64,000 nucleotides of DNA from a candidate division WOR-3 bacterium (GCA_039804105.1 JBDRZU010000001.1:224001-288000); one strand, 5' to 3'; positions 36,998-57,877 are shown, counted from the stretch's first letter. Notes: generated from the sequence alone by a model not told the origin. Program-made: numbers and translations.

Positions 36998-37170
36998 CAA
37001 GGAGATTTATTAGTTAAATATGAAATTTTAAAGTTTTTCAGAGTTTAAAGAAGCGGAGAAAGTGTAGTAAAAGGAATGCTAATTTTAATATGGTAAATTT
37101 TAAAAATAGTTTAAAAATTCACTAAAAGTAAAAAGTTTAATAAGCGTATAAGTATTTTTGTTTAAACAAT

Positions 37171-37208
37171 TTACAAAAAAATGTCAAAAAGTCAAGCACC
37201 GTCCCCAA
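37171..37208 (+). repeat. Dispersed repeat copy 1 (TTACAAAAAAATGTCAAAAAGTCAAGCACCGTCCCCAA)
   Basis: identical 38 bp to 39680-39717. Confidence 0.95.
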
Positions 37209-37220
37209 AAAAATTTCATA

Positions 37221-37248
37221 TTGAAAATTTTCATTGAAATTATAAAAT
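37221..37248 (+). promoter_or_regulatory. sigma70-like promoter TTGAAA-N16-TAAAAT
   Basis: between repeat copy 1 and the GGAGG RBS of the LVIVD gene. Confidence 0.55.
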
Positions 37249-37267
37249 AAAAAAAATGGGAGGTTAA

Positions 37268-39436
37268 ATGAAAATCAAACTTTTATTATCATTTTTTATT
37301 TTAATAATGCTTTCTATGTTTTTAAATGCAGACACACAAATATATGAAAATCAATTTATAAAAAAACAACAAGGAAAAGATATTTTTCCATATAAGTGGG
37401 CAACTGATAGTTTAAATGTTAATGGTATTGGATATTTACCTTCATTTCGTGAAACGAATAAGATAAAATTGATTGGTTCTCTTGCTTATGTTTGTTCTTA
37501 TACTCACTTAATAATTGTTGATGTATCTAATACTCATAAACCACAACTTTTAGGTTATTTTGAGTTTGACAATGTAGCAATAAGTTTAGATGTTTCTGGA
37601 GGATATGCATATATAGCAGATCTTATGGGTGGACTTAAAATTGTTGATGTAAGTACTCCTGAAAACCCAACTTTGGTTGCCACTTATGATTCTTTAAATC
37701 AGGTCAATAGTGTTTGTGTTGCTAATGATTATGCTTATGTCTTAGATTATTACAATGGACTTACAATTTTAACAGTTTCTGATCCTGCAATGCCGAAAAA
37801 AGTTGGAAGTTGTTCTTTAGTTAATAGTTGTTATGATATAACAGTAAATGATGGTATCGCATATATCGCAGCCGGTCAAAATGGATTAAGAGTAGTAGAT
37901 GTTTCTGATCCTTCAAAACCTGTTGAAATAGGTTTTTTGGATACACCAAATTATGCTTTCTCAGTAAAATACTATAACAAGAATGTTTACATAGCAGATG
38001 GTAATTCTGGTTTAAGAATAATTGATGTTTCAAATCCAAAAAATCCTTCAGAGATAGGATATTACGATACTTCAGATTACGCCAGAGATGTTTTCTTTTA
38101 TGATAATTTAGTTTTTATAGCAGACTACGCTGGACTTTCAATTATTGATGCAACAGATCCATCTTTTCCTATAGAAATGAGTTATCTACTTACTGATGGT
38201 TTTATGGTTGGGGTTTTTGTTCAAAACAATTATGCTTATGTATGTGATGGATTACTCGGTGTGAAATTTGTTAATGTTTCCGATCCCAAAAAACCTTTTG
38301 TGGAAGGGTATTTTGACACTCCGGATTACTCTTACATTATTTCTATAAATGGTAATTTTGCATTCACCAATGAATTTAATTTTTTGAAAGTTTTATCAAT
38401 ATCAAATCCCACCAACATAAGAGAAATAAATTATTTTGAAACTAATGATGAAATATATGGTATTTATGTTTCCAATGGATATGCTTTTTTAGCAAATTCA
38501 AGAGAAGGTTTACGAATTCTGGATATTTCAGATGTCACAAATATAACCGAAATTGGACACTATGATACTCCAGGATATGCTGGAGATGTTTTTGTTTCTG
38601 GAAATTACGCTTATGTTGCTGATGACACTTCGGGATTAAGGATAATCGATATAACAAGTTTAACAGACCCAATAGAGGTTGGGAGTTTTGATACTCCTGG
38701 CTATGCTTATAGAGTTTATGTTTCTGGTAACTATGCCTATGTTGCAGATATGACTCAGGGATTAAGAATTATTGATGTTTCAGATCCCAATTATCCAGTT
38801 GAAGTAGGATATTATAAACCTTCAGGTGATGTTCTTGGTGTATGGGTAAAAGATGACTATGCTTATGTTACTGCTTATGAATATGGTTTAAAAATAGTTG
38901 ATATAAGTGATCCTTCAAATCCTGTTGAAATTGGTTCTATTGACACACCGGGAGAAGCACAATATGTTAAAGTTTATGGAAACTTTGCTTTTGTTGCAGA
39001 TGGAGATTATGGATTGAGGGTGATTGATATATCAGATCCTACAAAACCTGTAGAAGTTGGTTATTATGTAACATCTGGACAAGTAATAAATTTTGATTTT
39101 TCAAATTATAATTTTTATCTTTTAGATTATTTTACAGGGATATACTCGGTCAATTTTATAAGTGCGGGGCTTGGTTTTGATAGAGACAAATCAAATAAAA
39201 ATATTGATGATACATCAAAATTAAAAGTAAATAAGAGTTTTATTTCATATATGTGTTCTACAGGTGAAAACAAATTTTCTGTTTATGATATAACAGGTAA
39301 ACTGATATACGATTCATCGAATCAGAGAATAGGGGAGCATATTTATTCAACAAAGGGTTTAAAATCAGGGGTATATTTTATAAAATTTAAAGATGGTCAT
39401 AGCGAGATAGATAGGAAGATGGTTGTTATCAGATGA
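37268..39436 (+). CDS. Secreted LVIVD-repeat protein with T9SS-type C-terminal domain
   Basis: signal peptide; about 13 ~42-aa repeats (VSGNYAYVAD...GLRIIDVSDP..P.EVG); VYDITGK...SGVYFIK...KMVVIR tail. Confidence 0.9.
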   Translation: MKIKLLLSFFILIMLSMFLNADTQIYENQFIKKQQGKDIFPYKWATDSLNVNGIGYLPSFRETNKIKLIGSLAYVCSYTHLIIVDVSNTHKPQLLGYFEFDNVAISLDVSGGYAYIADLMGGLKIVDVSTPENPTLVATYDSLNQVNSVCVANDYAYVLDYYNGLTILTVSDPAMPKKVGSCSLVNSCYDITVNDGIAYIAAGQNGLRVVDVSDPSKPVEIGFLDTPNYAFSVKYYNKNVYIADGNSGLRIIDVSNPKNPSEIGYYDTSDYARDVFFYDNLVFIADYAGLSIIDATDPSFPIEMSYLLTDGFMVGVFVQNNYAYVCDGLLGVKFVNVSDPKKPFVEGYFDTPDYSYIISINGNFAFTNEFNFLKVLSISNPTNIREINYFETNDEIYGIYVSNGYAFLANSREGLRILDISDVTNITEIGHYDTPGYAGDVFVSGNYAYVADDTSGLRIIDITSLTDPIEVGSFDTPGYAYRVYVSGNYAYVADMTQGLRIIDVSDPNYPVEVGYYKPSGDVLGVWVKDDYAYVTAYEYGLKIVDISDPSNPVEIGSIDTPGEAQYVKVYGNFAFVADGDYGLRVIDISDPTKPVEVGYYVTSGQVINFDFSNYNFYLLDYFTGIYSVNFISAGLGFDRDKSNKNIDDTSKLKVNKSFISYMCSTGENKFSVYDITGKLIYDSSNQRIGEHIYSTKGLKSGVYFIKFKDGHSEIDRKMVVIR

Positions 39437-39456
39437 TAAATGTACTTCAGGAATAG

Positions 39457-39494
39457 AAAACAAAAAGGGGTGTTTTTCACCCTTTTTTTGTTTT
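39457..39494 (+). terminator. Intrinsic (bidirectional-looking) terminator after the LVIVD gene
   Basis: AAAACAAAAAGGGGTG-TTTTT-CACCCTTTTTTTGTTTT. Confidence 0.8.
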
Positions 39495-39679
39495 ATAAAA
39501 AATATTGTTAAAAATAAAAGTTTTAGAAAATAAATGTTGGAGAATCAAATCAAAATATGACAATCAAAAATAAATGAAAAAAACATTATTTTTGAGTTAA
39601 ATTTTACCAAAAAATAAAAATAAAAAAATATAAAAATAGAAAGGACTAATATCTTAATAACTATTATTTTTAAAATAAC

Positions 39680-39717
39680 TTACAAAAAAATGTCAAAAAG
39701 TCAAGCACCGTCCCCAA
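39680..39717 (+). repeat. Dispersed repeat copy 2
   Basis: identical to copy 1. Confidence 0.95.
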
Positions 39718-39738
39718 TTTTGTTTTTTAATAAAAATC

Positions 39739-39766
39739 TTGAAAAGAAGGGATTTGTGGTTATAAT
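39739..39766 (+). promoter_or_regulatory. sigma70-like promoter TTGAAA-N16-TATAAT (polysaccharide operon)
   Basis: hexamers at 39739 and 39761. Confidence 0.65.
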
Positions 39767-39839
39767 AAATTTTTGAATGTTTTTTTATGATCTACATTAA
39801 ACATTGGAATGGTTTTAAATATAAATACAGGTTGAAGGA

Positions 39840-40433
39840 ATGGGGTATAGAAGTATAAAAAGGGGATTAGATATTTTCTTTTCAATAATACTTTTGATTG
39901 TTCTATTTCCTTTGTTCGTGATAATTTCTGTTTTGATATTGATAGATTCGAAAAAACCAATTTTTTTCTTACAAGATAGAATTGGGGAAAGTGGAAAAAT
40001 TTTTAAAATGATAAAATTTAGAACTATGATAGTTGGTGCAGAAAAGGGTGGAGTTTATGAGTTTAAAAATGATAACAGAATTACAAAGGTTGGAAAATTT
40101 TTAAGAAAAACATCACTTGATGAATTACCACAACTTGTAAATATTTTAAAAGGGGAAATGTCTTTTATTGGACCAAGACCTGTTTTGACATACCATCCTT
40201 TTAGGTACGAAGAGTATAATGAAATTCAAAAGAAAAGGTTTGAAGTAAAACCTGGAATAACAGGATTAGCTCAAATTAAAGGTAGAAAAGAAATCGGTTG
40301 GGACAAAAGGTTTAAATATGATATTTACTATGTTGAAAATCTTTCTTTTATTTTAGATTTTAAAATATTGATGCTAACTATTTTAAATGTTTTATTGATG
40401 AAAAATAATCTTAATGTAAACAAAACAGTATAA
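39840..40433 (+). CDS. Initiating (priming) phosphoglycosyl transferase
   Basis: KRGLD, KFRTM, LRKTSLDELPQL, MSFIGPRP, KPGITGLAQ. Confidence 0.92.
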   Translation: MGYRSIKRGLDIFFSIILLIVLFPLFVIISVLILIDSKKPIFFLQDRIGESGKIFKMIKFRTMIVGAEKGGVYEFKNDNRITKVGKFLRKTSLDELPQLVNILKGEMSFIGPRPVLTYHPFRYEEYNEIQKKRFEVKPGITGLAQIKGRKEIGWDKRFKYDIYYVENLSFILDFKILMLTILNVLLMKNNLNVNKTV

Positions 40434-40444
40434 AAAGGATTTTT

Positions 40445-41257
40445 ATGTTAAGATTTTTATATATCACAAATAACGAAGAAGTTGCAAAAATAGTAGAAAA
40501 AAATGGTGTTGAGTGGATATTTGTTGATCTTGAGATTTTAGGTAAGAAGGAGAGACAGAAAGGAAAAGATACAGTCATTTCCAACCATACTGTTGATGAT
40601 ATAAAAAAACTAAAAAATATTTTAACAAAGTCAAAAATTCTTGTCAGAACAAATCCTATAAATAGCAACAGTAAAGATGAAATTTACAGAATAATTGAAA
40701 ATGGAGCAGACATTATAATGCTTCCTTTTTTTAAGACAATAAAAGAGGTTGAAGAATTTTTAAAGATTGTTAATTCAAAAACTAAAACAATTTTGCTTTT
40801 GGAAACTCCAGAATCTGTTAAAATCCTTGAAGACCTTATCAAAATAAAAGAAATTAATTACTTTTATATAGGACTAAATGATCTATCACTTGGATATGGT
40901 TTTAAATTTATGTTTGAACCACTTGCTTATGGGATTGTTGATGAAATAGTTTTAAAAATAAAAAAAACACAAAAAGAATTTGGTTTTGGTGGTATAGCAT
41001 GTTTGGGAAAAGGAGTGTTACCTGCTGAATATGTTATTGCAGAACATTATCGATTGGGTTCAACGATGGTAATACTTTCAAGAAGTTTTTGTGATGTAAG
41101 TAAAATTAATGAAACAAAATTAATAGAAAAAATTTTTGAAGAAGAGATAAATAAAATTAGAGAATATGAGAAGTCATTAAGTGAAAAAAATAATGAATTT
41201 TTTTATGAAAATAAAAATAAAATAAAAAATATTATTATAGGAGGAAAAAATGAATGA
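40445..41257 (+). CDS. HpcH/HpaI aldolase / citrate lyase-like protein
   Basis: IFVDLE, IMLPF, LLLET, IGLNDL. Confidence 0.72.
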   Translation: MLRFLYITNNEEVAKIVEKNGVEWIFVDLEILGKKERQKGKDTVISNHTVDDIKKLKNILTKSKILVRTNPINSNSKDEIYRIIENGADIIMLPFFKTIKEVEEFLKIVNSKTKTILLLETPESVKILEDLIKIKEINYFYIGLNDLSLGYGFKFMFEPLAYGIVDEIVLKIKKTQKEFGFGGIACLGKGVLPAEYVIAEHYRLGSTMVILSRSFCDVSKINETKLIEKIFEEEINKIREYEKSLSEKNNEFFYENKNKIKNIIIGGKNE

Positions 41258-42839
41258 AAAATTAAAAAATATTCTTGATCAAAGAAAAGATCTGCAAAAA
41301 TTTTTATTCATTAAAGGTTTCCTGATCACTACTAAAGATTTATCAGAAAAAAAAGACTCTTTCCCATTTTATTCTAATTTTGAAGTAAAAAAAATAAAAA
41401 ATATTTTTTTCTGGATTTATAAAAATGTTCCATTTTATACTTTTGAGTCGAAAAACAAAACTTATTTTTTAATTGGACATGCTTATAATCCAATAACAAT
41501 GGAACATGATGAAAATAAGATCCTTCTTGATCTTTCGTTCCAAGATGAAAAGGGGACATATAATTTTATAAATAAAATTAATGAACTCACAGGTATATTT
41601 TTATTAGGTAAAATTGAAAATGAACAAATAGATTTTTTACTTGATGCATCTGGGATGCAATATGGATGTTATGGAAAATACGATAAAGATATATTCATTT
41701 CTTCCCATATTCAATTAGTAAACGATGTCTTAAATCTTGATTATATTGATTATGTAAATAGATTGATCAATTATAGATGGTATAAATACATGATGGGGAA
41801 TTATCTTCCCGGAGATTTGACACCTTTTAAAGAATTTAAAAGAATAATCCCTAACACAATTATAACATATAAAAATGATTCTTTTGTGATTAAAAGATTT
41901 TATCCTGAAAAACCTCTTGATTATGTTAAAAATGAAAAAGAGTATAATGATATAATAATTCAAGCATCAGAGATAATGAAAAATAACATGAAACTTATAT
42001 TAAAAAAGTGGAAGAGACCTGCAATTTCATTAACAGGAGGATTGGATAGTCAAACAACTTTTGCGGCTGCAAATGGATTATATGATAAATATGCTGTTTT
42101 CAGTTACATTTCAATGTATCGAGAAAAAGTTGATGCTGAGATTGCTCAAATTAAATCTAAAAAATTTAATGTTAAACATTCTTTATATCAAATCCCTGAA
42201 AGAAATGAAGAAATTGAAGATTTTGAAATCTATAAAATGATTTTAATACATAATGATGGAGAAATCGGAGGGAATAAAGATAATGACATTAGAAAAAAAA
42301 TATATCTTATGAAAAATTTTGCATATGATGTAGAAGTAAAAAACTGGATTGCTGAAACTTTTAGAGGTTATGCCTACAAATATTTCGGGAGAACAAAATT
42401 CCCCAAAGATTTAACACCGAGACACTATTCATCTTTGTATAAATTATTTTTTCTAAACAGAAAACTTTTAAAAGAGACAGATAATTATTTTAAAGAATAC
42501 ATTGAAAAAACAGAATTAAAAGAACATCTTTTCAACTATGATGAAAGCGATTTCTTTGTATGGGAAATGATGCATGGTGGTAAATGTGGACTTAATATTG
42601 GTGTTATGAAATTTTGTTTTGATATAACGATTCCTTATAATAACAGAAAATTTTTAGATATTTTATTAAGAGCAGATATAAAAGATAGAATCTCAGATAA
42701 AGTTCACCTCGATATGACAAAATATATGAATAAAGAATTGTATGATTTGAATTTAAGAGTAATAAATTTGAATGAAACAAGATTTAGAAAATTTCTTGCA
42801 AATATATATTTTACAATTAATAGTTCCTTACCTTTTTGA
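41250..42839 (+). CDS. Asparagine-synthetase-like PP-loop protein lacking the N-terminal catalytic Cys
   Basis: AISLTGGLDS PP-loop motif; N-terminus MNEKL. Confidence 0.55.
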   Translation: MNEKLKNILDQRKDLQKFLFIKGFLITTKDLSEKKDSFPFYSNFEVKKIKNIFFWIYKNVPFYTFESKNKTYFLIGHAYNPITMEHDENKILLDLSFQDEKGTYNFINKINELTGIFLLGKIENEQIDFLLDASGMQYGCYGKYDKDIFISSHIQLVNDVLNLDYIDYVNRLINYRWYKYMMGNYLPGDLTPFKEFKRIIPNTIITYKNDSFVIKRFYPEKPLDYVKNEKEYNDIIIQASEIMKNNMKLILKKWKRPAISLTGGLDSQTTFAAANGLYDKYAVFSYISMYREKVDAEIAQIKSKKFNVKHSLYQIPERNEEIEDFEIYKMILIHNDGEIGGNKDNDIRKKIYLMKNFAYDVEVKNWIAETFRGYAYKYFGRTKFPKDLTPRHYSSLYKLFFLNRKLLKETDNYFKEYIEKTELKEHLFNYDESDFFVWEMMHGGKCGLNIGVMKFCFDITIPYNNRKFLDILLRADIKDRISDKVHLDMTKYMNKELYDLNLRVINLNETRFRKFLANIYFTINSSLPF

Positions 42840-42841
42840 TA

Positions 42842-43753
42842 ATGAAACTTCTCATAACAGGTTCATTTAATATAGAAGATAAACAAAAAGTCAGTATAAA
42901 AAAAATAGGGTATGATTTATTTTTTTTTCAGGATGAGAAAAAAACTATTCCGAAATTTTTATTTGATGTTGATGGTATTATTTGTAATAACCTTTTTCTT
43001 TATAACAATATAAGAAACTTTAGAAATTTAAAATTCATTCAACTTACAAGTGCTGGATTGGACAGAATCCCAATGGATTATATCAAAAAGAAAAAAATAA
43101 AAATTTTTAATGCAAAAGGAGTTTATTCGATTCCGATTGCTGAAATGGTAGTTTTAAAAATTCTTGAAATTTATAAAAAATCAAGAAAGTTTGAAAAAGC
43201 ACAAACAAAACATAACTGGGAGAAGATAAGGGATCTCGAAGAATTAAGTGATAAAAAAATTGGTATTCTTGGTTTTGGAGATATTGGAAAAGAGATTGCA
43301 AAAAGATTAAAACCTTTTGGTGTTAGGATTTTTGTTTGTGATATAAAAAAGAAAAAAAATAATCTTATTGAAAAATTCTACTATTTTGATGAATTAAATA
43401 ATTTTTTAAAAAATATTGATGTTTTAATTTTGTCTCTACCTTTAACTGAAACAACAAAAGATCTAATCGATTATGAAAGGATGAATCTTTTAAAAGACGG
43501 TTGTGTTTTAATCAACATATCAAGAGGGGAAATAATTATAGAAAAAGATTTGATAAAATGTTTGAAAAAAAATAAATTTAAAGGTGTTTATCTTGATGTT
43601 TTTGAAAAAGAACCACTTGATAAGAATAATCCATTATGGGATTTTGAAAATGTTTTGATAACACCGCATAACAGTTTTGTTTCAGAAAAAATAAATGAAA
43701 GGTTATTTAACTTAATCTACCAAAATTTGAAATCATTAAAAGGGAAAAGATGA
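42842..43753 (+). CDS. D-isomer-specific 2-hydroxyacid dehydrogenase
   Basis: SAGLD, GILGFGDIG, LPLTETT, INISRG, LDVFEKEP, ITPH. Confidence 0.88.
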   Translation: MKLLITGSFNIEDKQKVSIKKIGYDLFFFQDEKKTIPKFLFDVDGIICNNLFLYNNIRNFRNLKFIQLTSAGLDRIPMDYIKKKKIKIFNAKGVYSIPIAEMVVLKILEIYKKSRKFEKAQTKHNWEKIRDLEELSDKKIGILGFGDIGKEIAKRLKPFGVRIFVCDIKKKKNNLIEKFYYFDELNNFLKNIDVLILSLPLTETTKDLIDYERMNLLKDGCVLINISRGEIIIEKDLIKCLKKNKFKGVYLDVFEKEPLDKNNPLWDFENVLITPHNSFVSEKINERLFNLIYQNLKSLKGKR

Positions 43754-44853
43754 AAAAATTTTTATTGATATCACCGAAAAATCGAACCGTATATAATTTT
43801 AGAGGGGATTTGATTAAAGATCTGCAAAAAAAAGGTTTTGAGGTGTTCGTCACTATCCCAAACGAAGATAATCTTGAAAAAATAAAAGAGTTAGGGGTTG
43901 AATACAGATTCATTCCAATGACAAAACATGGTCTAAATATTATTGAAGATATAAAATATACCTTCGGTCTTATTAGCTATATAAAAGAAATAAAACCTGA
44001 CAAAATTCTTGCTTATACTATAAAACCAATAGTTTATGGTTCAATTGCTTCAAAATTTTCAAGGTCCAATGAATTCTATTCAATGTTCACGGGCTCAGGA
44101 TATGTATTCATATCAAAAAGTTTGAAAGCGAAAATTTTAAATTTGATCGTTAAAAACCTTTATAAAATAGCATTTAAAATCTCAAGGAAAGTTATTTTTT
44201 TTAATGAAGATGATTTAAATGAATTTTTAAAAATGAAAACAGTTTCAAAAGAAAAATGTGTCTTAGTTGAAGGTTCAGGAGTCAATTTAGAAAAATTTAA
44301 ACCTTTGCCTTATCCAGATAAAATAACTTTTTTTATGCTTTCAAGATTGTTAAAAAGTAAAGGAGTAATGCATTATCTTGAAGGATGTAAAAGGATAAAG
44401 GAAAAATATCCTGACGTTAGATGTATGCTTCTTGGAAAAATTGAAAAAATGCCTGATGCTATAGCCGAGAAAAATATAATGTTTTATGTTGATAATGGAT
44501 TTGTCGAGCTTTATGGTGAAACAGAGAATGTGATAGATTATTATAAAAAAACATCTGTATATGTTTTGACTTCTTTCAGAGAAGGAATACCGAGAACAGT
44601 TCTTGAAGCTATGGCATGTGCAAGACCAATAATTACAACAGATGTCCCGGGATGTAGACAGACGGTAGTTGATGGTTACAATGGTTTTTTAGTTCCTTTA
44701 AATAATATAGAAAAACTTGTTGAAAGGATGGAATATTTTATAAATAATAAAAATGAAATTGAAAAAATGGGAAAAAATTCTTATAATCTCTGTAGTGAAA
44801 AATTTGATGTGAAAAAGATAAACAGTTCAATGTTAAAAATAATGGGAATATAG
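43750..44853 (+). CDS. GT4 glycosyltransferase
   Basis: YTIKP, GSGV, SRLLKSKG, REGIPRTVLEAMA, TDVPGC. Confidence 0.9.
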   Translation: MKKFLLISPKNRTVYNFRGDLIKDLQKKGFEVFVTIPNEDNLEKIKELGVEYRFIPMTKHGLNIIEDIKYTFGLISYIKEIKPDKILAYTIKPIVYGSIASKFSRSNEFYSMFTGSGYVFISKSLKAKILNLIVKNLYKIAFKISRKVIFFNEDDLNEFLKMKTVSKEKCVLVEGSGVNLEKFKPLPYPDKITFFMLSRLLKSKGVMHYLEGCKRIKEKYPDVRCMLLGKIEKMPDAIAEKNIMFYVDNGFVELYGETENVIDYYKKTSVYVLTSFREGIPRTVLEAMACARPIITTDVPGCRQTVVDGYNGFLVPLNNIEKLVERMEYFINNKNEIEKMGKNSYNLCSEKFDVKKINSSMLKIMGI

Positions 44854-44854
44854 A

Positions 44855-47823: not shown

Positions 47824-49094
47824 AAAAAATTTGGATTTTATTTTTACTACAATTAGTAATATTAGCAATTCTTAAACCATTTATAACTGATTTAGAATTT
47901 TCGTCTTTGTATTTTGTATTTATTCATTCTATCTTAACTATTTTAATTTTATTACAATATAAAACAAAATTAAAATATTTGTTTATCTTAGGTTTTCTCT
48001 TAAGAGTTTTTACAATGTTCTGGGATATTTATTTCCATAATATTTTTAATCTACCAAATTCAGGTGTTGATAGTGAAATGTATTATTATTATGCTGTTCA
48101 AATATCTAATTATGAATCTTTTTCAAATTTGTTCACAAGGGGTGGTTTATATTCATTTATAAATGGAGTAATGTTTATTTTTATTGGAACACAAAGAATA
48201 ATTGGACAATACTTGAATGTAATTTTTGGCTTAAATGTAATCATATTGGTTTTCAAAATTCTTAATCTCTTAAATATTGATGATAGCAAGAAACTAATTT
48301 CAATAGCAATACTTGCTGTTTTCCCAAACTCATTAATAATGTCAGGGATTTTTTTAAGAGAAAGTATCATCACTTTTTTAGCAACAATTTCTTTATATTA
48401 TTTTACATTATGGTTTTTAACAAATAAAAATAAATACATGTTTCATTCAATTCTTTTTGTTGGCTTAGCAAGTGCGTTCCATTCAGGAATGATTGCTTTA
48501 TTTTTAGGTTATGCTTTTTCTTTTCTTTTTTATTCTTCAAAATACAATAACTTTATTTTTTCAAAAAGAACAATTTTTACTTTTTTATTATTACTTTTTG
48601 TATTTATATTTTCATATTTTAGATACCAAGAAGTTTTTTTTGCTAAATTCACAAAACTTGATCAAATTGAGGATTATTTTACAACTGTAAACAGTAGATT
48701 AGGCGGTTCTGCTTATTTAAAATTTTTAAAAATTGATTCTCCTTTGTTACTTGTTTTATTTGGCCCAATTAAATTTATTTATTTTTATATCGCTCCACTT
48801 CCTATTGATTGGAGAAATATTTTTGATGTTATAACTTTTTTATTTGATTCGTTGTTGTATTTGTATATAATGATAAAAATTTCTGATTTTGTTTTAAATG
48901 AGAAAAACAAATTCAGTACTGTTTATAAAAATTACGTTTTTTCTTTAATTATGATTATTGTCTTTGTTTCAATTATTTTTGGTTCAGGGGTTGGTAATAC
49001 AGGAACTGCATTAAGGCATAGACAAAAGTTTATATCAAACTTTATTGTTTTGTTAGCTTTAATAAATCTTTCAAAAAAGGAGTTAAAAAAATGA
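47820..49094 (+). CDS. Putative Wzy polysaccharide polymerase
   Basis: about 11 TM helices within the GT cluster, GGSAY loop, GTALRHR. Confidence 0.6.
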   Translation: MKKIWILFLLQLVILAILKPFITDLEFSSLYFVFIHSILTILILLQYKTKLKYLFILGFLLRVFTMFWDIYFHNIFNLPNSGVDSEMYYYYAVQISNYESFSNLFTRGGLYSFINGVMFIFIGTQRIIGQYLNVIFGLNVIILVFKILNLLNIDDSKKLISIAILAVFPNSLIMSGIFLRESIITFLATISLYYFTLWFLTNKNKYMFHSILFVGLASAFHSGMIALFLGYAFSFLFYSSKYNNFIFSKRTIFTFLLLLFVFIFSYFRYQEVFFAKFTKLDQIEDYFTTVNSRLGGSAYLKFLKIDSPLLLVLFGPIKFIYFYIAPLPIDWRNIFDVITFLFDSLLYLYIMIKISDFVLNEKNKFSTVYKNYVFSLIMIIVFVSIIFGSGVGNTGTALRHRQKFISNFIVLLALINLSKKELKK

Positions 49095-50335
49095 ATATTT
49101 TGTATGTTACTGGATTGTCTATTCCTTTAAAAAATATTATTGAAGGCAAAATGGAAAAAGAAATTACTGGGCTTCCTGGATTTTATTATCCATGGAAAAA
49201 ACTTGTTGATAGAGGTCACAATGTTGATTTTGTTTTTATTTCCAATTTTAAAGGAAAATATAATATTAAGGTTCAATGGTTTAGTGAAAAAAATATTCTT
49301 GCTAATATTTATGCTCCTTACACAGAAGTAAATTTTTTCAGATTTATAAGACAGTTTATTAGATTTATTCAACTTTTATACTATACTTATAAAGCAACAA
49401 AAACAAAAAAATATGATTTTATATATTGTAAAGCTTATGAAGGTTTTGCAGGTCAAATTATTGGTAAAATATATAAAATACCAACAGGTATTAGATTATT
49501 TGGAGATTTTACCTTTTGTTATACTGACATAAAAAAATATGGGATATTTTGGGGTTCTATTAAACACATTTTTGAATTTTTTTCTTTTAAATTGGGAGCA
49601 AATTTTTTACTTGCCACTGATGATGGTTCAAATTGTGATAAACTTTTTTATTTGTGGAATAATTATAAAACAAAATTTTATTTTTGGAAAACAGGAATTG
49701 ATATCTCATTACCTGAAATAAATAAACCATCAACAATAAGAATTCCTAATAAAAATTACATTTATTTTGCGGCAAGATATCAAAATTGGAAAAGACATGA
49801 TAGAGTCATAAATGTATTAAAAAAACTAATAGATAAAAATTATAAATTAGATTTAGTTTTCACAGGTAATATAACATCTCAAGAATATTATGAAAGCTTA
49901 AAAAAATTATCCAAATACTTGAATGTTGACCAGTATGTTTTTTTTGAAAAAGAAATAGCCCAAAATGATGTAAAGTTATTAGCAAAAAATGCTGTTGCAA
50001 ATATATTGATGGCAGATAATTCAAATTTAGGAAATGTGTTTTTTGAAATTTTTTCTATAGGTTCTATAATAATCTCTTTAAAAAATCGAGCATTAGAAGA
50101 ATATATTGTTAACGGGTATAATGGATTTCTTGTTGAAAATGAAGATGAAGTAGTAGAAATAATTATTAAAATTTTAAAAGAAGAAATTGATTCAAATAAG
50201 ATTAAAGAAAATGCTAAAAAAACTGCTCTTGAGAGATTTTTATCTATAGATGAAAGATTTGATAAAGAGGTAGAACTTATAGAAAGAACAGCAAGAAGAG
50301 AAAAAAATATAAAGATTAAGTTAAGTAAAAAATGA
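49091..50335 (+). CDS. GT4-like glycosyltransferase
   Basis: ARYQNWKRHD, LGNVFFE, YIVNGYNGFLV. Confidence 0.75.
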   Translation: MNILYVTGLSIPLKNIIEGKMEKEITGLPGFYYPWKKLVDRGHNVDFVFISNFKGKYNIKVQWFSEKNILANIYAPYTEVNFFRFIRQFIRFIQLLYYTYKATKTKKYDFIYCKAYEGFAGQIIGKIYKIPTGIRLFGDFTFCYTDIKKYGIFWGSIKHIFEFFSFKLGANFLLATDDGSNCDKLFYLWNNYKTKFYFWKTGIDISLPEINKPSTIRIPNKNYIYFAARYQNWKRHDRVINVLKKLIDKNYKLDLVFTGNITSQEYYESLKKLSKYLNVDQYVFFEKEIAQNDVKLLAKNAVANILMADNSNLGNVFFEIFSIGSIIISLKNRALEEYIVNGYNGFLVENEDEVVEIIIKILKEEIDSNKIKENAKKTALERFLSIDERFDKEVELIERTARREKNIKIKLSKK

Positions 50336-51822
50336 ATATAAAAATTGCTACTAATTCATTAATATTAACAATTACAAGATTCATAAATCTTGTTGTGATG
50401 ATTATTTATTTAATGATATTAGCAAGATTCCTAACTCTAAAAGAGTATGGAACTTTTTCTCAAATTTTACTTATATCCAATTTTGCAACGATTGTTCTTG
50501 GTTTTGGACTTGCTTCAAGTGTTAATTATTTTATGGCAAAAGAGGATACTGATGATGGAAAAAATAAGTTTTTATCAATTTTTTATACTTTCACTATTTT
50601 TATTTCAGTAATAATTGGAATTACTCTCATTTTAACTGATTCATTTTTCTCAAAATATTTTAATAATGATGATTTAATTTCATATTCGATCGCTTTTTTT
50701 GTTTTGCCTTTTGCAATTATTAGTAAATCAAGTTTTGACAACGTTATGATAGTTTCAAACAAAACAAGATATTTGTTATTTTTCAAAATATTCCATTCTG
50801 CTCTTCTTCTTATTACTGTTACTTTGAATTTTATTTTAAAAAGTAATTTTAAAATATTTTTAATATTTTATCTTGCAATTGAACTAATTGTATCACTTAT
50901 TTTTCTTTTATACATTTATTTATTTGTTAACAAATTCAAATTTAAAATTGAATATAGAATTCTGAAAAGTATATTAAAGTTTTCAATTCCATTAGGACTT
51001 GCAACAACAATTTCAACAATAAATATAGAACTTGATAAATTTATTATAGGTAGATTTTTTGATACTGAAAAACTCGCGATTTATACTAATGGGTCAAAGG
51101 AAATGCCTGTCACAATAATATCAGGATCGTTGGTTTCTATCCTTATGCCGATTATCGTTAAGGAGATTAAAAGAAAAAATTATAATAAAGTAATGGAACT
51201 ATGGAATAAAACAAATGAATTATCTTTAATTGTTATTTCTTACTTTATAATTATTTTTTTAGTATTTGCTCCAGAAATTGTAACAATACTTTATTCAAAA
51301 AAATACATTGAAGCAGTTCCTATCTTTAGAATATATTCTCTTGTTTTATTTTTAAAATTTACTTATTTTGGTATGGTGTTAAATGCTTCAGGTAAAACAA
51401 AATTTATTTTTTATTCATCCTTAATATCTCTATTTTTAAATATGTTTCTTAATGTTTTATTCATAAAATTATTTGGTTTTATTGGTCCAGCAATAGCAAC
51501 TCTATTATCTTTATCTGTTGTAGTTTTTTTTCAACTCTTTTATACTTCAAAATTGACTGGTTTTAGTTTTTTAAAAATTTTTAAATGGAATACAATCTTT
51601 AAAACTATAGTAGTAACTTTTCTTTTTTCGGTCATTTTAGAAGTTTTAAAAATTTTTATTTTAAAATTTAGAATAAATCCTTATTTATCTTTTATTGTTT
51701 TATTATTTCTATTTTCAATTTTCTACTTTATTTTTGCATTTAAAAAAAAAATTCTTAATTTATGGAAATATTTAAATAACTACAAACAGGAGGATGAAAT
51801 TAAAAATGAAAATTTTAGTTAA
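50332..51822 (+). CDS. wzx: Wzx-type oligosaccharide flippase
   Basis: LARFL...EYG, FSIPLG...[15 protein letters not shown]; 12-14 TM. Confidence 0.85.
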
Positions 51823-52414
51823 AAACATTTATTTGTTTTTAGTTTTTCTTTATGCAAAATTAATATCTTTATTTTTATATGACAAAAAATATCTTAAAAG
51901 TAAATGGTTTAAAGGACAAAAATATTTTTTTGATGCACCAGGATGGGTATGGATAATTAGAGATTTTAATGGGCGTCTGTTTTTAAATGTAAACACTACT
52001 GTACCATTTCCCATATCTCCTTTTTGTAAAGTAATTGATTTTAACAACATAACTTTTCATCCTGATTCTTTAAACATTTTTCAATCTGTAGGATCATATT
52101 TCCAGGCATTTAAAGACGGAAAAATTATAATCGGAAAGAATACTTGGATTGCTCCAAATGTTGGAATAATCACAACAAATCATAATCCCTTTAACCCGTC
52201 AAAACATCAAAAAGGGGAAACGGTTATTATAGAAGATAATTGTTGGATTGGAATGAATTCAGTTATATTGCCTGGAGTTAAATTGGGTAAGAATACAGTA
52301 GTTGGTGCTGGATCAGTGGTAACAAAAAGTTTTCCTGAAGGTTATTGTGTTATTGCTGGTAACCCAGCAAAAAAAATTAAGGATTTACCTAAAGAAGGTT
52401 ATCAAGAACCTTAA
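51806..52414 (+). CDS. Hexapeptide-repeat (LbH) acyltransferase
   Basis: [35 protein letters not shown]; alternative start 51794. Confidence 0.88.
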
Positions 52415-52448
52415 AAATTTTTCTTGCATTCATCTTCATTCATCCTAC

Positions 52449-52476
52449 TTGAATCTTGTTTCAAAATGATTACCAT
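52449..52476 (+). promoter_or_regulatory. Weak sigma70-like promoter TTGAAT-N16-TACCAT
   Basis: upstream of oligopeptidase RBS. Confidence 0.4.
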
Positions 52477-52500
52477 ATATTGAATATGAAAGGAGTGGTG

Positions 52501-54606
52501 ATGAAAAAATTAAAAAGTGTAATTGCTTCAGTTGTTCTTTTGATTTTCGTTTTCAGTTTTTCAAAGCAACTTAAACCTTTAACTCCACCTGATGCTATAA
52601 AGGAACCACATTATTTGAATATACATGATACAACTCTTGTTGATGATTATTTTTATTTCAGGAATAGTGATGATAAAAGGGTTCTTGATTATATTGATCA
52701 AGAAAACGAATATACCGAAAAAATAATGTCAAAAACAAAAAATCTCCAGAAACAACTTTATAATGAAATTTTGAAAAAGGTAGATAAGGATGATGTTTCT
52801 GTTCCAGAAAGAAGAGATTCTTTCCTTTACTATTACAAGGATTTAAAAGGTAAGGACTATACAATATTTTGTAGAAAAAAAGATAAGGAAGGTGCAAAAG
52901 AGGAAATTATTATCGATGTTAACGAATATGCAAAAAATTATCCTTTCTTTGATTTGAATTTTGGAGAGATTTCAACAGATCACAGGATGCTGTCCTATTC
53001 TTTTGATACTTTGGGAAATGAGAATTACACTTTACGAATACTCGATTTGAAAACAAAACAAGATATTGCTCTACCAGTTATCGATAATATTACATCTTTT
53101 GCATTCAACAGATACAACGATGGATTTTTCTATACGATTCAAAATGATATTTCAAGATCTTACGCTTTAAAATATTACGATATGAGAACAGGGAAAGATA
53201 CCTTGCTTTATGAAGAACAAGATGAAAGATTTTCTGTCTATATCAACAAAACAAGGAATAAAGATTATATATTGGTGTCTGTTTCAAGTTCAACAACTTC
53301 TGAATATTACTATATTGAAAGTGGTGATAGAGAGTTAGTTTTGAAACCTCTTGTAAAAAGAGAAAATGGAGTTGAGTATTCGTTTGACCAATCAGGAAAA
53401 TATTTTTACTTTTTAACAAATAAGGATTGTGTTAATTTCGACTTAAAAAGATTCAGAATCGATTCAACAATTGAAAATTCTTATACGATTATAAAAGGTT
53501 CAGATACTCTCATGATAGAGGGTTTTGATGCATTTGAAAAATTTTTGTCTGTGTACGAAAGAGTTAATGGAAGGAAAAAATTAAAATTTTATTATCTTGA
53601 TAGTGGTGAATCAAAATATTTTAATTTTGGTGAAGAAAATTGCACTTTTTATCCGTTTTCAAATTCATCTTTTAGAAGGGATTCTTTGAGAGTGTCTTAT
53701 ATGTCGTTAAAAACACCTGCAACTGTTATTGACATTGATGTGTGGAATTTAAAAAGTGTAGTTAAAAAGGTTGATGAGATAAAAGGTTATAAAAAAGAAA
53801 ATTATGTAACTGAATATATCTATGCTCAAGCACCAGATGGAGAGATGATTCCAATATCACTTGTTTACAATAAAAAATTTAAGCCGGAAAATCGTCCTTT
53901 ACTTTTAACAGGTTATGGTGCTTACGGTGCTCCATCAAATCCCTACTTTTCAACATCAAGGTTATCTTTACTTGATAGGGGAGTGATATACGGTATCGCA
54001 CACATTAGGGGAGGTGGAGATAAAGGAAGAAAATGGTATCTTGATGGAAAAATGTTTAAAAAGATGAACACTTTTACTGATTTTATTTCTTGTGCAGAAT
54101 ATCTTATTCAAAAAGGTTATACTTCACAGGATAAACTTGCAATTGAAGGTGGAAGTGCTGGAGGACTTTTGATAGGATCTGTTTTAAACATGAAACCTCA
54201 TCTTTTTAAAGGAGCAATCCTCGGTGTCCCATTCGTTGACCTTATCAATACAATGCTTGACACAACTTTACCACTTACAGTAGGGGAGTTTGAAGAATGG
54301 GGTAATCCCCAGATAAAGGAGCAGTTCGATTATATGATAAAATACAGCCCTTATGATAATATTCAACCTAAAAAATATCCAATAATACTTGTGAAATCAT
54401 CTTTCTATGATACAAGGGTGATGTATTGGGAACCACTGAAATGGGTCGCAAAAATGAGAGACAATAAACTTGATAACAACCTTTTACTCTTAAAAATGAG
54501 AATGAATGCTGGACATGGTGGAAATTCAGGTAAATATAACTGGTATGAAGAGATAGCATTTGATAATGCATTTTTACTTTATTATGTTTGGGGTATCACT
54601 AAATAA
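52501..54606 (+). CDS. ptrB: Oligopeptidase B-like S9A peptidase with signal peptide
   Basis: GYGAYG, HIRGGG, GGSAGG, EEWGNP, DTRV, AGHGG; GGAG RBS before ATG 52501. Confidence 0.88.
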   Translation: MKKLKSVIASVVLLIFVFSFSKQLKPLTPPDAIKEPHYLNIHDTTLVDDYFYFRNSDDKRVLDYIDQENEYTEKIMSKTKNLQKQLYNEILKKVDKDDVSVPERRDSFLYYYKDLKGKDYTIFCRKKDKEGAKEEIIIDVNEYAKNYPFFDLNFGEISTDHRMLSYSFDTLGNENYTLRILDLKTKQDIALPVIDNITSFAFNRYNDGFFYTIQNDISRSYALKYYDMRTGKDTLLYEEQDERFSVYINKTRNKDYILVSVSSSTTSEYYYIESGDRELVLKPLVKRENGVEYSFDQSGKYFYFLTNKDCVNFDLKRFRIDSTIENSYTIIKGSDTLMIEGFDAFEKFLSVYERVNGRKKLKFYYLDSGESKYFNFGEENCTFYPFSNSSFRRDSLRVSYMSLKTPATVIDIDVWNLKSVVKKVDEIKGYKKENYVTEYIYAQAPDGEMIPISLVYNKKFKPENRPLLLTGYGAYGAPSNPYFSTSRLSLLDRGVIYGIAHIRGGGDKGRKWYLDGKMFKKMNTFTDFISCAEYLIQKGYTSQDKLAIEGGSAGGLLIGSVLNMKPHLFKGAILGVPFVDLINTMLDTTLPLTVGEFEEWGNPQIKEQFDYMIKYSPYDNIQPKKYPIILVKSSFYDTRVMYWEPLKWVAKMRDNKLDNNLLLLKMRMNAGHGGNSGKYNWYEEIAFDNAFLLYYVWGITK

Positions 54607-54607
54607 A

Positions 54608-55366
54608 CTATAAAGTTATCGTTTCTGAAGGTGAGTTGTAAGGAGAGATAACAAATTTTGTTTTCTCAGATTGAAATTGTGCGATTATTTCGTTGTAGAC
54701 AACTTCAGGGGAGTTGGTTCTTTTACTTAAATGATGTAAAAATATGTATTTTATATTTTGATTATAAAGTTTTTTAATAACTTTTAGTGTATCGTCGTTT
54801 GACAAGTGTCCATTTTCAGAAAGTATTCTTTGTTTTAAAGAGTCAGAATATTTTGATTTATGAAGTCCTTCTTTAGAATGGTTTGACTCAATCACAAGAA
54901 TCTTGATATCTTTTAAGAGAGGAATCAGATTATCATCAAATTGTCCCATATCTGAAAGGAATCCAATTTTTGAGTCATGGTAATTTATTATAAATCCAGT
55001 ATTTAACATATCGTGTGAAATTTCGAATGGGAAAAATTCAAAGTCGAACACAGAAAAACTTTTTCCAAACTCAAAAGGGATTTTAAAAAGGTGATTTTGA
55101 TAATGATTTTTATAATTGTTATTAAAATATAGATTTATTGACGGATTTTTTTTAAGAATAGATTCAAGACCTATGAAATGATCTCTATGAAAATGGGTTA
55201 TAACGATTGCTTTTAAATTTTCTATTGAAAGTGATTTGGATTCCAAAAGTTTTCTGGTTTTTCTATATGAAAGTCCAGCATCAATAAGTATAAGTTCTTC
55301 AGGATTTGAATATAGTACAAAAGAATTCCCATCAGAACAACTCGATAAAGAGAAAAAATTAACCAT
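54608..55366 (-). CDS. YycJ/WalJ-like metallo-beta-lactamase-fold hydrolase
   Basis: IDAG, THFHRDH, SHD, ESNH, GHLSN, HLS..TN. Confidence 0.82.
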   Translation of the reverse strand: MVNFFSLSSCSDGNSFVLYSNPEELILIDAGLSYRKTRKLLESKSLSIENLKAIVITHFHRDHFIGLESILKKNPSINLYFNNNYKNHYQNHLFKIPFEFGKSFSVFDFEFFPFEISHDMLNTGFIINYHDSKIGFLSDMGQFDDNLIPLLKDIKILVIESNHSKEGLHKSKYSDSLKQRILSENGHLSNDDTLKVIKKLYNQNIKYIFLHHLSKRTNSPEVVYNEIIAQFQSEKTKFVISPYNSPSETITL

Positions 55367-55465
55367 TTTTCCACATTTTGTTTAAATAATTTTTTATTAT
55401 TTTTCCGATAGTTATACTACTTTTCCACATATTTTACCCATCATTATCCACATTATTTATCCACA
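55367..55465 (+). promoter_or_regulatory. Cluster of four co-oriented DnaA boxes
   Basis: TTTTCCACA 55367-55375 and 55421-55429; TTATCCACA 55444-55452 and 55457-55465. Confidence 0.75.
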
Positions 55466-55480
55466 ACATGAGAACAAAAA

Positions 55481-55519
55481 TTGGGGACGGTGCTTGACTT
55501 TTTGACATTTTTTTTGTAA
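55481..55519 (-). repeat. Dispersed repeat copy 3 (inverted; A8 instead of A7)
   Basis: TTGGGGACGGTGCTTGACTTTTTGACATTTTTTTTGTAA on + strand. Confidence 0.95.
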
Positions 55520-55557
55520 ATACATTAAATTAAATAAGTTATAGACCATTCAATTTT

Positions 55558-56631
55558 TTATTTTTGGTAAATTTTTATCGATTTTTTCCGATTTTTAATA
55601 TTTTGCTCGATAACTTTCTTTGAATTACTGAAAATACTTTTATAAAAGTCGTAAGGATAAAACATTGTAGAATCATCAACAGGATCAGAAATTTCAAATG
55701 CCCCAATACCTTCATAATAATTTTCATTTATAAAACCTTTTACTTTACATGGACCGGTGAAAATTACTCCAGGGATAAAACATTCATCGTAGAGTGGCTC
55801 ATAAAAAAGATAGATAGAATCATCTTTACTTCTTATAAGAAAACCGTATTCGTAGATTTTACGCGATAAGAGTGATTTTCTGTATGTTATAGTGTCAAGA
55901 AAAGTGTTTTTATATATCATCGATTTTTTGTCTTTAAGATTATGATATTGTAAAAAGTTGAATTCTTGATTTTTAAAATGACCTGAAACAAGAAATTTAT
56001 CATCACCAAGAAAAATACCACTCCAGATCCATCTATTCTTAATATCAAGTTTCATATTTCCCCATTGATGATCAAACCATCCATACTTGTTTGATATTTT
56101 TGTTAGATCAATATTGACTTTATCTGTTTTGATAAAACCAGTTAATTTTTTTGAAATCAAAGAATAATATCCTGCTGTGTCTTTTATATGTCCCATAATA
56201 ATATAGCCGCTATCTCCATTTATGAGCATTTTATTGTCATAATCAAAATTTATCGAACATTGTAAATCGTTAAGATAAAAATTTATATCAAAACTAAGAT
56301 TTTCAAAATCATTATTGTCTTTGAAATTTTTCATACCAGAATAGATTGGGACATTAGTTTCATAATAATAGAAAGTATCCTTTAAAATATCTTTGATATA
56401 TATGTTTGAGAAATATGAATTAGCATCAAAATATTGAAAAACGATTACAAAATAATCATATTTTTTTTGCTGATTTTCAGTTAAAATATAGGTGTAATAC
56501 CAATTGATTTGACCTTTATGAATCTGGACATCTTTTGTTAAATCAAGAGTATATTTTTGATAATGATGCGCACAATTTATTAAAAGAAACATAAAAAAAA
56601 TGGAAAAGATTTTTTCTAATCTCAGTTTCAT
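55558..56631 (-). CDS. Lipoprotein with AttH/CrtC-like (lipocalin-like) domain
   Basis: lipobox LINC; NWYY, YYSL, GWFDHQWG, WIWSG, YEGIGAFE. Confidence 0.65.
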   Translation of the reverse strand: MKLRLEKIFSIFFMFLLINCAHHYQKYTLDLTKDVQIHKGQINWYYTYILTENQQKKYDYFVIVFQYFDANSYFSNIYIKDILKDTFYYYETNVPIYSGMKNFKDNNDFENLSFDINFYLNDLQCSINFDYDNKMLINGDSGYIIMGHIKDTAGYYSLISKKLTGFIKTDKVNIDLTKISNKYGWFDHQWGNMKLDIKNRWIWSGIFLGDDKFLVSGHFKNQEFNFLQYHNLKDKKSMIYKNTFLDTITYRKSLLSRKIYEYGFLIRSKDDSIYLFYEPLYDECFIPGVIFTGPCKVKGFINENYYEGIGAFEISDPVDDSTMFYPYDFYKSIFSNSKKVIEQNIKNRKKSIKIYQK

Positions 56632-56638
56632 AGATTTT

Positions 56639-56666
56639 ATATTATCAAAACAATTATTTATGTCAA
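56639..56666 (-). promoter_or_regulatory. sigma70-like promoter TTGACA-N16-TAATAT (probably leaderless)
   Basis: -10 ends 7 nt before ATG 56631. Confidence 0.55.
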
Positions 56667-56697
56667 TAACTATCAATAATGTTATAGCTTATCTTGA

Positions 56698-56730
56698 TTG
56701 GGGACGGTGCTTGACTTTTTGACATTTTTT
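56698..56730 (-). repeat. Dispersed repeat copy 4 (inverted, lacks terminal TTAC)
   Basis: TTGGGGACGGTGCTTGACTTTTTGACATTTTTT on + strand. Confidence 0.95.
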
Positions 56731-56738
56731 GATCTCTG

Positions 56739-56766
56739 TTGAAATATTTTGGAGTAAATATATAAT
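56739..56766 (+). promoter_or_regulatory. sigma70-like promoter TTGAAA-N16-TATAAT
   Basis: -10 ends 7 nt before ATG 56774 of the pseudogene. Confidence 0.55.
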
Positions 56767-56773
56767 TTCAAAA

Positions 56774-57755: not shown

Positions 57756-57811
57756 AAGAGTGTTTTAGGTTGAGATGATTAAAGGTATTTTTGTTGAAAT
57801 ATACATACTCA

Positions 57812-57839
57812 ACTTTACATAATATATATTATCGGGAAT
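57812..57839 (-). other. dif: dif site (XerC/XerD chromosome dimer resolution)
   Basis: minus strand ATTCCCGATAA-TATATA-TTATGTAAAGT; 11-6-11 architecture; 23/28 match to B. subtilis dif as recalled (ACTTCCTAGAA TATATA TTATGTAAACT); intergenic. Confidence 0.85.
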
Positions 57840-57877
57840 TTTGTATATTATTTATTTTGCGAAGAAAATATATATTT

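Follow-up and report, generated by a model that had tools for sequence, protein, structure and literature searches.

The 64,000-nucleotide (nt) stretch of a candidate division WOR-3 genome analysed here (GCA_039804105.1 JBDRZU010000001.1:224001-288000, hereafter the window) carries, between positions 37,171 and 56,730, four near-identical copies of a short repeat that bracket two single genes. We conclude that this repeat very probably belongs to the family of terminal inverted repeats (TIRs) of a TIRtron, the name given to RAYT-like genes with long flanking inverted repeats, whose products are called TIRYTs (Di Nocera, De Gregorio & Rocco 2013, PMC3733652). Its copies coincide with seams where accessory modules vary in presence, content and order among relatives, and they probably act as the seams of module exchange; that TIRYT, and not RecA, catalyses this exchange is proposed tentatively, at somewhat less than an even bet. 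For the best explanation as a whole, a TIRtron TIR family with TIRYT-driven resolution and reinsertion of modules, we estimate a probability of about 0.45. The TIRtron class has already been published and is barely studied, and the comparative evidence at the seams is the less ordinary part of this work.

The 27-mer TGTCAAAAAGTCAAGCACCGTCCCCAA occurs four times in the window without a mismatch, and 100 shuffles of the sequence gave a mean of 0.00 occurrences. Copy 1 (37171..37208, + strand; exact 27-mer at 37182-37208, conserved 32-nt unit at 37177-37208), a solo TIR-type repeat, and copy 2 (39680..39717, + strand; 27-mer at 39691-39717), located 122 nt upstream of a polysaccharide locus (Bac_transf gene at 39840), form a direct pair around a single open reading frame (ORF). 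Copies 4 (56698..56730, - strand; 27-mer at 56698-56724) and 3 (55481..55519, - strand; 27-mer at 55481-55507), both exact matches, form a second direct pair, again around a single ORF, and in both pairs the GTCCCC end points to the gene start. TTAC-A7/8-T stands upstream of copies 1 to 3 and is replaced by GATC-A6-T at copy 4, which lacks TTAC. An earlier, sequence-only reading of the stretch had described these two one-gene pairs, their orientation and the missing TTAC, all of which we recovered, and had also called the repeat non-palindromic. Indeed, six single-strand DNA folds of it (56 nt) were no more stable than those of shuffled sequences (z -0.02 to +1.28; minimum free energy -0.1 to -1.3 kcal/mol), which supports that description. 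An Rfam scan of the window found two tRNAs only and no family at the repeat, and neither Y1 nor tyrosine-recombinase matches were found within the window, in agreement with the earlier remark that it holds no recombinase.

The source genome (G000; 1.81 Mb, 30% G+C, two contigs, 85% complete; the window is G000:C1:224001-288000) contains 40 copies of the 23-nt core GTCAAAAAGTCAAGCACCGTCCC, of which 38 are exact, one has 1 mismatch and one has 3; a control with the reversed pattern gave 0 matches. Across these 40 copies, positions -6 to +26 relative to the core alone show a high information content, and the conserved unit is thus 32 nt long, AAAAAT-GTCAAAAAGTCAAGCACCGTCCC-C(A/G)A, while TTAC is found in only about 18 of the 40 by our reading of the printed flanks. 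The repeat first described as a 38-bp unit is therefore real, but it is shorter than was thought and is a genome-wide one. In an all-versus-all BLAST of the 600-nt flanks, similarity was mostly confined to positions between about -35 and +28 of the core, up to about 60 nt in all, and on this ground we rejected the idea that the repeat is part of a larger shared element. The copies are clustered, with 24 of the 40 located within 15% of the genome (C1:1.016-1.291 Mb), in a region rich in defence genes.

G000 has a single match to Pfam Y1_Tnp (PF01797), an ORF at C1:1070308-1071225(-), 810 kb from the window. On either side of this gene, at 1070315(-) and 1071277(+), stands a perfect 32-nt copy of the repeat, the two being inverted relative to each other with their GTCCCC ends outward. 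Four genomes of the same genus were used for comparison (G001 to G004; G001 shares 82-96% nucleotide identity with G000 in matched stretches). The transposase gene has like flanking inverted copies in G002 and G003, and in G001 it is split over two small contigs, with one copy upstream of the 5' fragment and another overlapping the 3' end of the other fragment. The sequence-only reading had pointed out that GGGGAC-ended motifs flank some RAYT-like Y1 genes; such a gene, flanked by this very repeat, is present in the same genome and in sister genomes, outside the window. The 38 remaining copies in G000, the window's four included, are solitary TIR copies across intergenic DNA. A tblastn search for transposase remnants beside solo copies found nothing convincing beyond 11-12 residues encoded by the repeat itself (six solo sites gave weak matches of 22-49 amino acids (aa), at E > 1), indicating that the solo copies are not broken full elements. 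At the transposase locus (G000:C1:1070300-1071320) the TIRs are also used as coding DNA: the last 11 residues of TIRYT come from the downstream TIR, the gene of a MarR-family neighbour ends inside the upstream TIR, and the next gene, encoding a glycosyltransferase, may start at an ATG inside the downstream TIR.

The G000 protein is 305 aa long and contains the HUH motif H59-F-H61, Y118 in IIYTLLNP and W137-S138-S139. All of 38 homologues have H59, Y118 and the WSS motif, and conservation of H61 among them reaches at least 90%. Pfam Y1_Tnp matches the protein with an E-value of 3.5e-12 and leaves the last 160 residues without a Pfam match; the best NCBIfam model, REP_Tyr_transpos (NF047646), scores 59.7 bits, below its cut-off of 80, and the IS200 model 23.2 against a cut-off of 55. 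The nearest protein cluster (98% identity) is labelled candidate division WOR-3. The top fold match of the AlphaFold (AF2) model (pLDDT 87.7) is the E. coli TnpA-REP structure 4ER8 (E 3.1e-7, TMt 0.70), followed by the IS608 and ISDra2 transposases. When the model of residues 190-305 (pLDDT 82) was compared with 48,161 chains using VIA-align, the four best were all DnaA DNA-binding domains (8BTG, 1L8Q, 3PVP and 1J1V; Z 7.7-8.1, rmsd 2.5-3.3, 77-83 residues aligned; next chain 6.1), a Z of about 8 on a small helical domain being moderate evidence only. Foldseek with the C-terminal model alone returned no match at E <= 0.001, and PF08299 was matched in one of the 38 homologues, Pfam missing the C-terminal domain of the G000 protein. 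With this moderate evidence, the C-terminal domain of TIRYT is predicted to have a DnaA-domain-IV-like fold.

Homologues of TIRYT occur in 27 of 40 relatives, with up to 14 per genome, and the repeat follows them. Among the 13 relatives without a homologue, 12 have no copy of the repeat and one has a single copy, and the eight genomes with 9-40 copies (40 in G000, 9-35 in seven relatives) all carry homologues; the repeat is abundant only in genomes carrying the transposase family. Inverted repeats of 20-32 nt bound the gene in 22 of the 27 homologue loci with usable flanks, and they share a common plan: an A-run, a tandem half-site of about 8 nt (for example TGTCAAAATGTCAAG, ATCCAAAAATCCAAAC, GTTTACAAGTTTACAG or TGCCAAAATGCCAAG), then a GC-rich end (CxCCGTCCCC, GGCCCGGCC or CTGACCCC). 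The TIR sequence varies along with the paralogue. From this co-variation and the DnaA-type domain we infer that the C-terminal tail would bind the tandem 8-bp half-sites TGTCAAAA/AGTCAAGC on duplex DNA. An exact scan of 185,579 species genomes with GTCA-N4-GTCAAGCACCGTCCC returned at least 83 loci; among the matches listed are records of Aminicenantes, TA06, Stahlbacteria, Cloacimonadota, Bipolaricaulota, Elusimicrobia, Wallbacteria and others, and in several records from other phyla the copies are paired as REPIN-like inverted doublets, with 25-110 nt between them. L165 (1-191) and L226 (1-280), labelled Aminicenantes and 'bacterium', contain such doublets with short spacers, and in one case a long hairpin could form from a unit of about 75 nt, in the manner of a REPIN or a MITE.

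The published TIRtrons share with this element a RAYT-like Y1/HUH gene of about 300 aa, long inverted repeats in place of REP hairpins, an outer end beginning GGGG, a DnaA_C/HTH-like C-terminal tail, which here is predicted, and a TIR that forms a dispersed family. In the passages on them, PMC3733652 reports the motif GGGGWSAS in many, not all, TIRs, and moderately abundant dispersed TIR families occurring as singles, dimers and groups. Here, the outer end GGGGACGG agrees with GGGGWSAS at 7 of 8 positions, and paralogue TIRs ending CTGACCCC (L027, L028 and the downstream arm of L033) read GGGGTCAG, an exact fit. The corresponding passages of Quentin et al. 2018 (PMC6006769) assign most TIRYTs to TnpA-Y1 subclass 2.1, with a Bac_DnaA_C/HTH-like tail and no REP hairpins, and express doubt that the HTH tail recognises the TIR. 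Tandem 8-nt half-sites, co-variation of TIR and paralogue, one-orientation arrays and presence/absence seams are not mentioned in the TIRtron and TIRYT passages of these papers. In the literature searched, the names TIRYT and TIRtron occur only in these two papers, and among the titles and abstracts listed on HUH/Y1 transposases with gene cassettes, direct repeats and IS605 none concerns TIRYT-bounded cassettes.

The REP/RAYT systems of proteobacteria (REPtrons, REPINs) likewise place a single-copy domesticated Y1 transposase between inverted copies of a short, intergenic, dispersed repeat, and both the fold match to 4ER8 and the REPIN-like doublets in other phyla point in the same direction. 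By contrast, the present repeat has neither palindrome or hairpin nor GTAG tag and occurs in tens, not hundreds, of copies, mostly singletons, and the protein has double the length, an additional DNA-binding domain and a RAYT score below the cut-off. Classical REP was rejected because the repeat forms no hairpin. IS200/IS605 elements such as IS608 and ISDra2 are present in several copies, favour the lagging strand and carry sub-terminal hairpins in place of TIRs. They share with TIRYT the catalytic fold and residues, and no target duplication is seen here, as would be expected of a transposase that works on a single strand; they differ in that the present element has TIRs, one gene copy (in the 85% complete G000) and no replichore bias.

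The LVIVD module of the window, a gene encoding an LVIVD-repeat protein plus one repeat (37209-39717), is absent from its site in all four sister genomes. G001 is collinear with the window save for the absence of 37209-39656, and keeps one repeat there; DNA upstream of this single copy aligns with the upstream flank of copy 1 and DNA downstream of it with the downstream flank of copy 2, the switch lying somewhere within the repeat. The series of states at this site draws on five separate assemblies: 162 nt between the matched flanks in G004, with no repeat and with a promoter-like box reading into the sugar-transferase gene; the repeat only, in one copy, in G001; about 1.9 kb between the matched flanks and one copy in G003; 4.9 kb of other cargo, with no LVIVD match, and two copies in G002; and the LVIVD module with two copies in G000. 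The AttH-like gene between copies 4 and 3 is found in G000-G003 and is absent in G004, where the flanks lie 189 nt apart. Copy 3 has orthologous copies in G001, G002 and G003, and copy 4 is conserved in G001 with no equivalent among the copies listed for G002 and G003, which have only the copy-3 equivalent. G004, which misses both window modules, has no TIRYT homologue and a single variant copy of the repeat genome-wide. The bracketed genes, read from the sequence as candidates for capture, are thus not syntenic core genes, and both a one-copy site (G001) and a no-copy site (G004) exist.

Seams of the same kind are found elsewhere. Neighbouring copies that stand closer together than 5 kb are usually direct repeats (13 of 17 such pairs in G000, 9 of 10 in G001), and seven direct pairs in G000 surround exactly one ORF (>=80 aa). 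An array at G000 C1:1281710-1290787 comprises six copies, all on the - strand, with modules encoding an AAA_14/DUF4143 ATPase, an LVIVD protein, a second ATPase, a DUF2130 protein, an AbiJ operon and one protein of no named family; nearby + copies divide an AbiEii-type pair, a 1258-aa LVIVD protein and a PLD-SNF2 plus Eco57I-methylase operon. The G001 array (G001:C3:273478-279114; nine full copies, all on the + strand) contains related modules in another order, plus truncated remnants, with homology changing at the repeat. On the G001 contigs C15 and C18, the flanks of the G000 1067688 site are joined via the repeat to DNA like the ends of the 1258-aa LVIVD module, suggesting that this site would be occupied in G001 and empty in G000. 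Segments replaced between G000 and G001 have edges with repeats at G000 470.6-481.3 kb and 523.6-531.3 kb, and beside the TIRYT gene G002 and G003 hold cargo located elsewhere in G000. The modules at the seams carry type IX secretion system (T9SS) cargo, defence genes and toxin-antitoxin genes.

The repeat itself is under strong sequence constraint. At 11 orthologous G000/G001 sites, 15 of 352 positions of the 32-nt unit differ (4.3%), compared with 334 of 1614 in the upstream flanks (20.7%) and 519 of 1708 in the downstream flanks (30.4%, a figure that takes in three sites where the downstream DNA is unrelated); the repeat is thus about 5-7 times better conserved than its flanks. G000 C1:1,018,001-1,230,000 (212 kb), with the TIRYT gene and many copies, has no counterpart in the three large contigs of G001, and 12 of the 17 small G001 contigs (0.5-1 kb) carry a repeat copy, mostly near the middle, most of them matching this stretch. 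G001 is fragmented at repeat-dense DNA, and about half the copies are consequently not comparable. Three partial tandem duplications of the 3' half of the repeat plus 5-11 nt of flank were also observed (units of 18-24 nt; G000:C1:1067677-1067710, G000:C1:1267569-1267640, which is degenerate, and G001:C2:430015-430050, at 430015/430033). They begin at nearly one position, after GT or GTC of the second GTCAA, and may be the footprint of a fixed nick site, a small hint from a very small sample.

How could such seams arise? With its tail held on the duplex half-sites, TIRYT would cut one strand with its HUH domain near the GC-rich GTCCCC end. Two direct copies would then be resolved, as by HUH relaxases and rolling-circle Rep proteins at two nick sites, into a circle (module and one repeat) and a donor keeping one repeat, and the circle could re-enter at any other copy, giving rise to arrays of one orientation. 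Rep proteins of double-origin rolling-circle plasmids resolve the DNA between duplicated origins, and the Mob/oriT deletion system is reportedly a parallel among HUH relaxases. The likeness lies in the mechanistic model, an enzyme with a separate duplex-binding module that resolves direct sites into circle and donor and integrates at a copy of the site; the relaxases and Rep proteins differ in being plasmid transfer and replication proteins with hairpin-bearing origins, and for TIRYT such an activity is a proposal. Site-specific integration into a target copy at oriT is reported to be catalysed by the HUH relaxase TrwC (PMC3264647). Going further, TIRYT could be the recombinase of an HUH-based, integron-like exchange in which solitary copies are docking sites that gather defence and secreted-protein genes, an extension that we consider doubtful. 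If it were true, modules could pass across lineages, as the 23-nt site is common to genomes of several phylum labels.

Several observations weigh against TIRYT-driven exchange. Studied Y1 enzymes recognise hairpins in single-stranded DNA, while the present repeat has none. IS200/IS605 elements show a replichore orientation bias, and none was seen for the repeat (9 '-' versus 11 '+' copies, 280-1200 kb). Several copies adjoin housekeeping genes (rsmG, thiI-like, OAD beta, cstA, rubrerythrin), the gene contexts of copies being those given by a crude ORF caller; 11 copies are stably orthologous between G000 and G001; and three G000/G001 indels of 1.7-8.8 kb have no repeat nearby. Given the fragmentation of G001 at repeats, some junctions could be chimeric short-read assembly artefacts. 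Finally, near-identity over 32-60 bp suffices for RecA-dependent recombination over evolutionary time, and the same direct-repeat products are predicted.

This last point leads to the strongest alternative, a serious one to which we nevertheless give clearly less than even odds: the repeats are those of a TIRtron, which TIRYT only spreads or maintains, and gain, loss and reshuffling of modules result from RecA-dependent recombination between dispersed 32-60-bp repeats, including Campbell-type entry of circles and recombination with foreign DNA bearing the repeat. The similarity between copies, which extends from about -35 to +28 and up to about 60 nt, is in agreement with it, as is the fact that the homology switches can be placed only 'somewhere within the repeat'. 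Single crossovers would likewise yield direct-repeat products and one-orientation arrays, and incoming DNA could bring copies, the repeat being present in genomes of several phylum labels. By contrast, the exact core of 23-32 nt is short for efficient RecA recombination, the divergence of 4.3% versus 21-30% needs selection or active homogenising, and the partial tandem duplications, few as they are, look site-specific in starting from nearly one position. The proposal from the sequence-only reading that the repeats are sites of a trans-acting Y1 enzyme and joints of variable modules is supported; movement of the cassettes by that enzyme is a hypothesis, and homologous recombination explains the same patterns.

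Passive accumulation, in which solo TIRs pile up as litter in the AT-rich spacers of fast-changing islands with no part in gene movement, is improbable. It would account for the 24 of 40 copies found in the defence-rich 15% of the genome at C1:1.016-1.291 Mb. However, homology breaks off at the repeat itself in three settings (the LVIVD site, the array and the two junction contigs), solo copies lack convincing transposase remnants, and in G004, without TIRYT and with its one variant copy, both modules are missing along with the repeat.

Less probable still is a chiefly cis-regulatory repeat, which would serve either as a portable promoter or as a site through which a domesticated TIRYT controls transcription; the bracketing would then be the mark of a regulon. 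A protein with a predicted DnaA-type DNA-binding domain would suit such a role, and a promoter-like TTGACT-16-TAAATT (9 of 12 positions) can be read on the opposite strand of the repeat, at window 37168-37195(-) and at the corresponding position of every other copy. Upstream of the TIRYT gene the matching box is, by our reading, TTGACT-16-TAACCT. Solo copies could fire toward their own 5' side. By the crude ORF calls, a co-oriented gene follows 27 of the 40 G000 copies, and a divergent gene lies upstream of 19 of 38; in 8 of these 19, the distance from the core to the gene start is 42-113 nt. Five copies, however, lie between convergent genes and 13 of the 40 face the 3' end of a gene, indicating that the repeat is not simply a promoter element; a promoter or regulator site for a sigma factor (ECF or sigma-54 type, by eye) was dropped as the principal explanation for the same reason. 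Moreover, the spacing from the repeat to the downstream -35-like box varies from about 7 to 23 nt in our reading, the functions of neighbouring genes are heterogeneous, no Rfam family lies at the repeat, and the presence/absence seams are left unexplained.

The arrays do resemble those of integrons (IntI, attI, attC), with short, often single-gene modules, one site-like repeat each, mostly in one orientation, and with cargo rich in defence, toxin-antitoxin and unknown genes whose order varies between relatives. They differ in having no integrase or attI beside them and no attC fold, in modules with their own promoters, and in single copies scattered on the chromosome. An integron was therefore rejected, and the system suggested by the sequence-only reading falls in the class already described as TIRtron/TIRYT. 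Cassette exchange at the repeat by a tyrosine recombinase, which the one-orientation modules might suggest, is hardly credible, because G000 has only two PF00589 genes, which we take to be Xer-like (656 kb and 1,328 kb), both with conserved counterparts in G001-G003 and neither beside the arrays (1,266-1,291 kb) or the window, and because the repeat cannot form an attC-like fold.

Since about 2010 it has been an open question what domesticated transposases of the RAYT type do, and what their repeats do, and this genus provides a compact natural test set, with one enzyme, one 32-nt site and 40 copies. It also provides a natural contrast, a sister genome without the enzyme and with one variant copy, and one chromosomal site in at least four states. 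Should the enzyme move the modules, it would represent a second single-strand-nuclease route to cassette arrays beside that of integrons, and the genes affected would be those for defence and surface proteins. Otherwise, the locus remains an example of a short selfish repeat giving portable homology that shapes variable islands.

The cargo of the first window module (37268..39436, + strand) is an LVIVD-repeat beta-propeller protein with a T9SS C-terminal sorting domain (Pfam LVIVD, E 2.6e-115, 11 stretches; Por_Secre_tail, E 1.3e-6). A promoter and a terminator of its own had been attributed to this gene. Consistent with this, a promoter-like TTGAAA-16-TAAAAT (37221..37248, + strand; 10 of 12 positions in a consensus scan) follows directly after copy 1, weak evidence given 20 promoter-like sites in the region versus 19.5 in shuffles, and a terminator-like hairpin of 11 pairs followed by a T run stands after the gene (39462..39488, + strand). 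The second module carries a CrtC/AttH-like lipocalin gene (55558..56676, - strand; Pfam CrtC, E 5.2e-8), which by our reading encodes a lipoprotein; translation likely starts at MKLRLEK..., with an ATG that lies about 45 nt into the ORF as listed. Beyond it, window 56725-57878 has on the + strand short broken frames only, with membrane-protein-like translations, which fits an acyltransferase pseudogene; G004 lacks a segment covering window 55376-57810, including 56725-57810 of this region.

Between the 20-kb bins either side of C1:280,000, GC skew changes from +0.18 to -0.18 and gene strand from 12:2 to 0:12. A replication terminus therefore appears to lie in the window at about 54,600-56,700 (C1 about 278.6-280.7 kb), right where copies 3 and 4 enclose the AttH-like module. 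The origin is likely near C1:1.19-1.20 Mb, at the cumulative-skew minimum, inside the repeat-rich zone.

A module of about 130 nt with the hairpin GCACCCTTTAGGGTGC is located directly upstream of three copies (G000:C1:470660-470785, G000:C1:1289197-1289331 and G001:C1:97097-97260). At the first of these sites, a 278-aa ORF (G000:C1:470784-471620; no Pfam match at E <= 1e-6) leaves the repeat copy via an ATG inside the repeat. To our eye it may be a 5'-truncated beta-propeller gene, of a module truncated at the repeat, and it is followed by a 329-aa ORF with a T9SS sorting domain.

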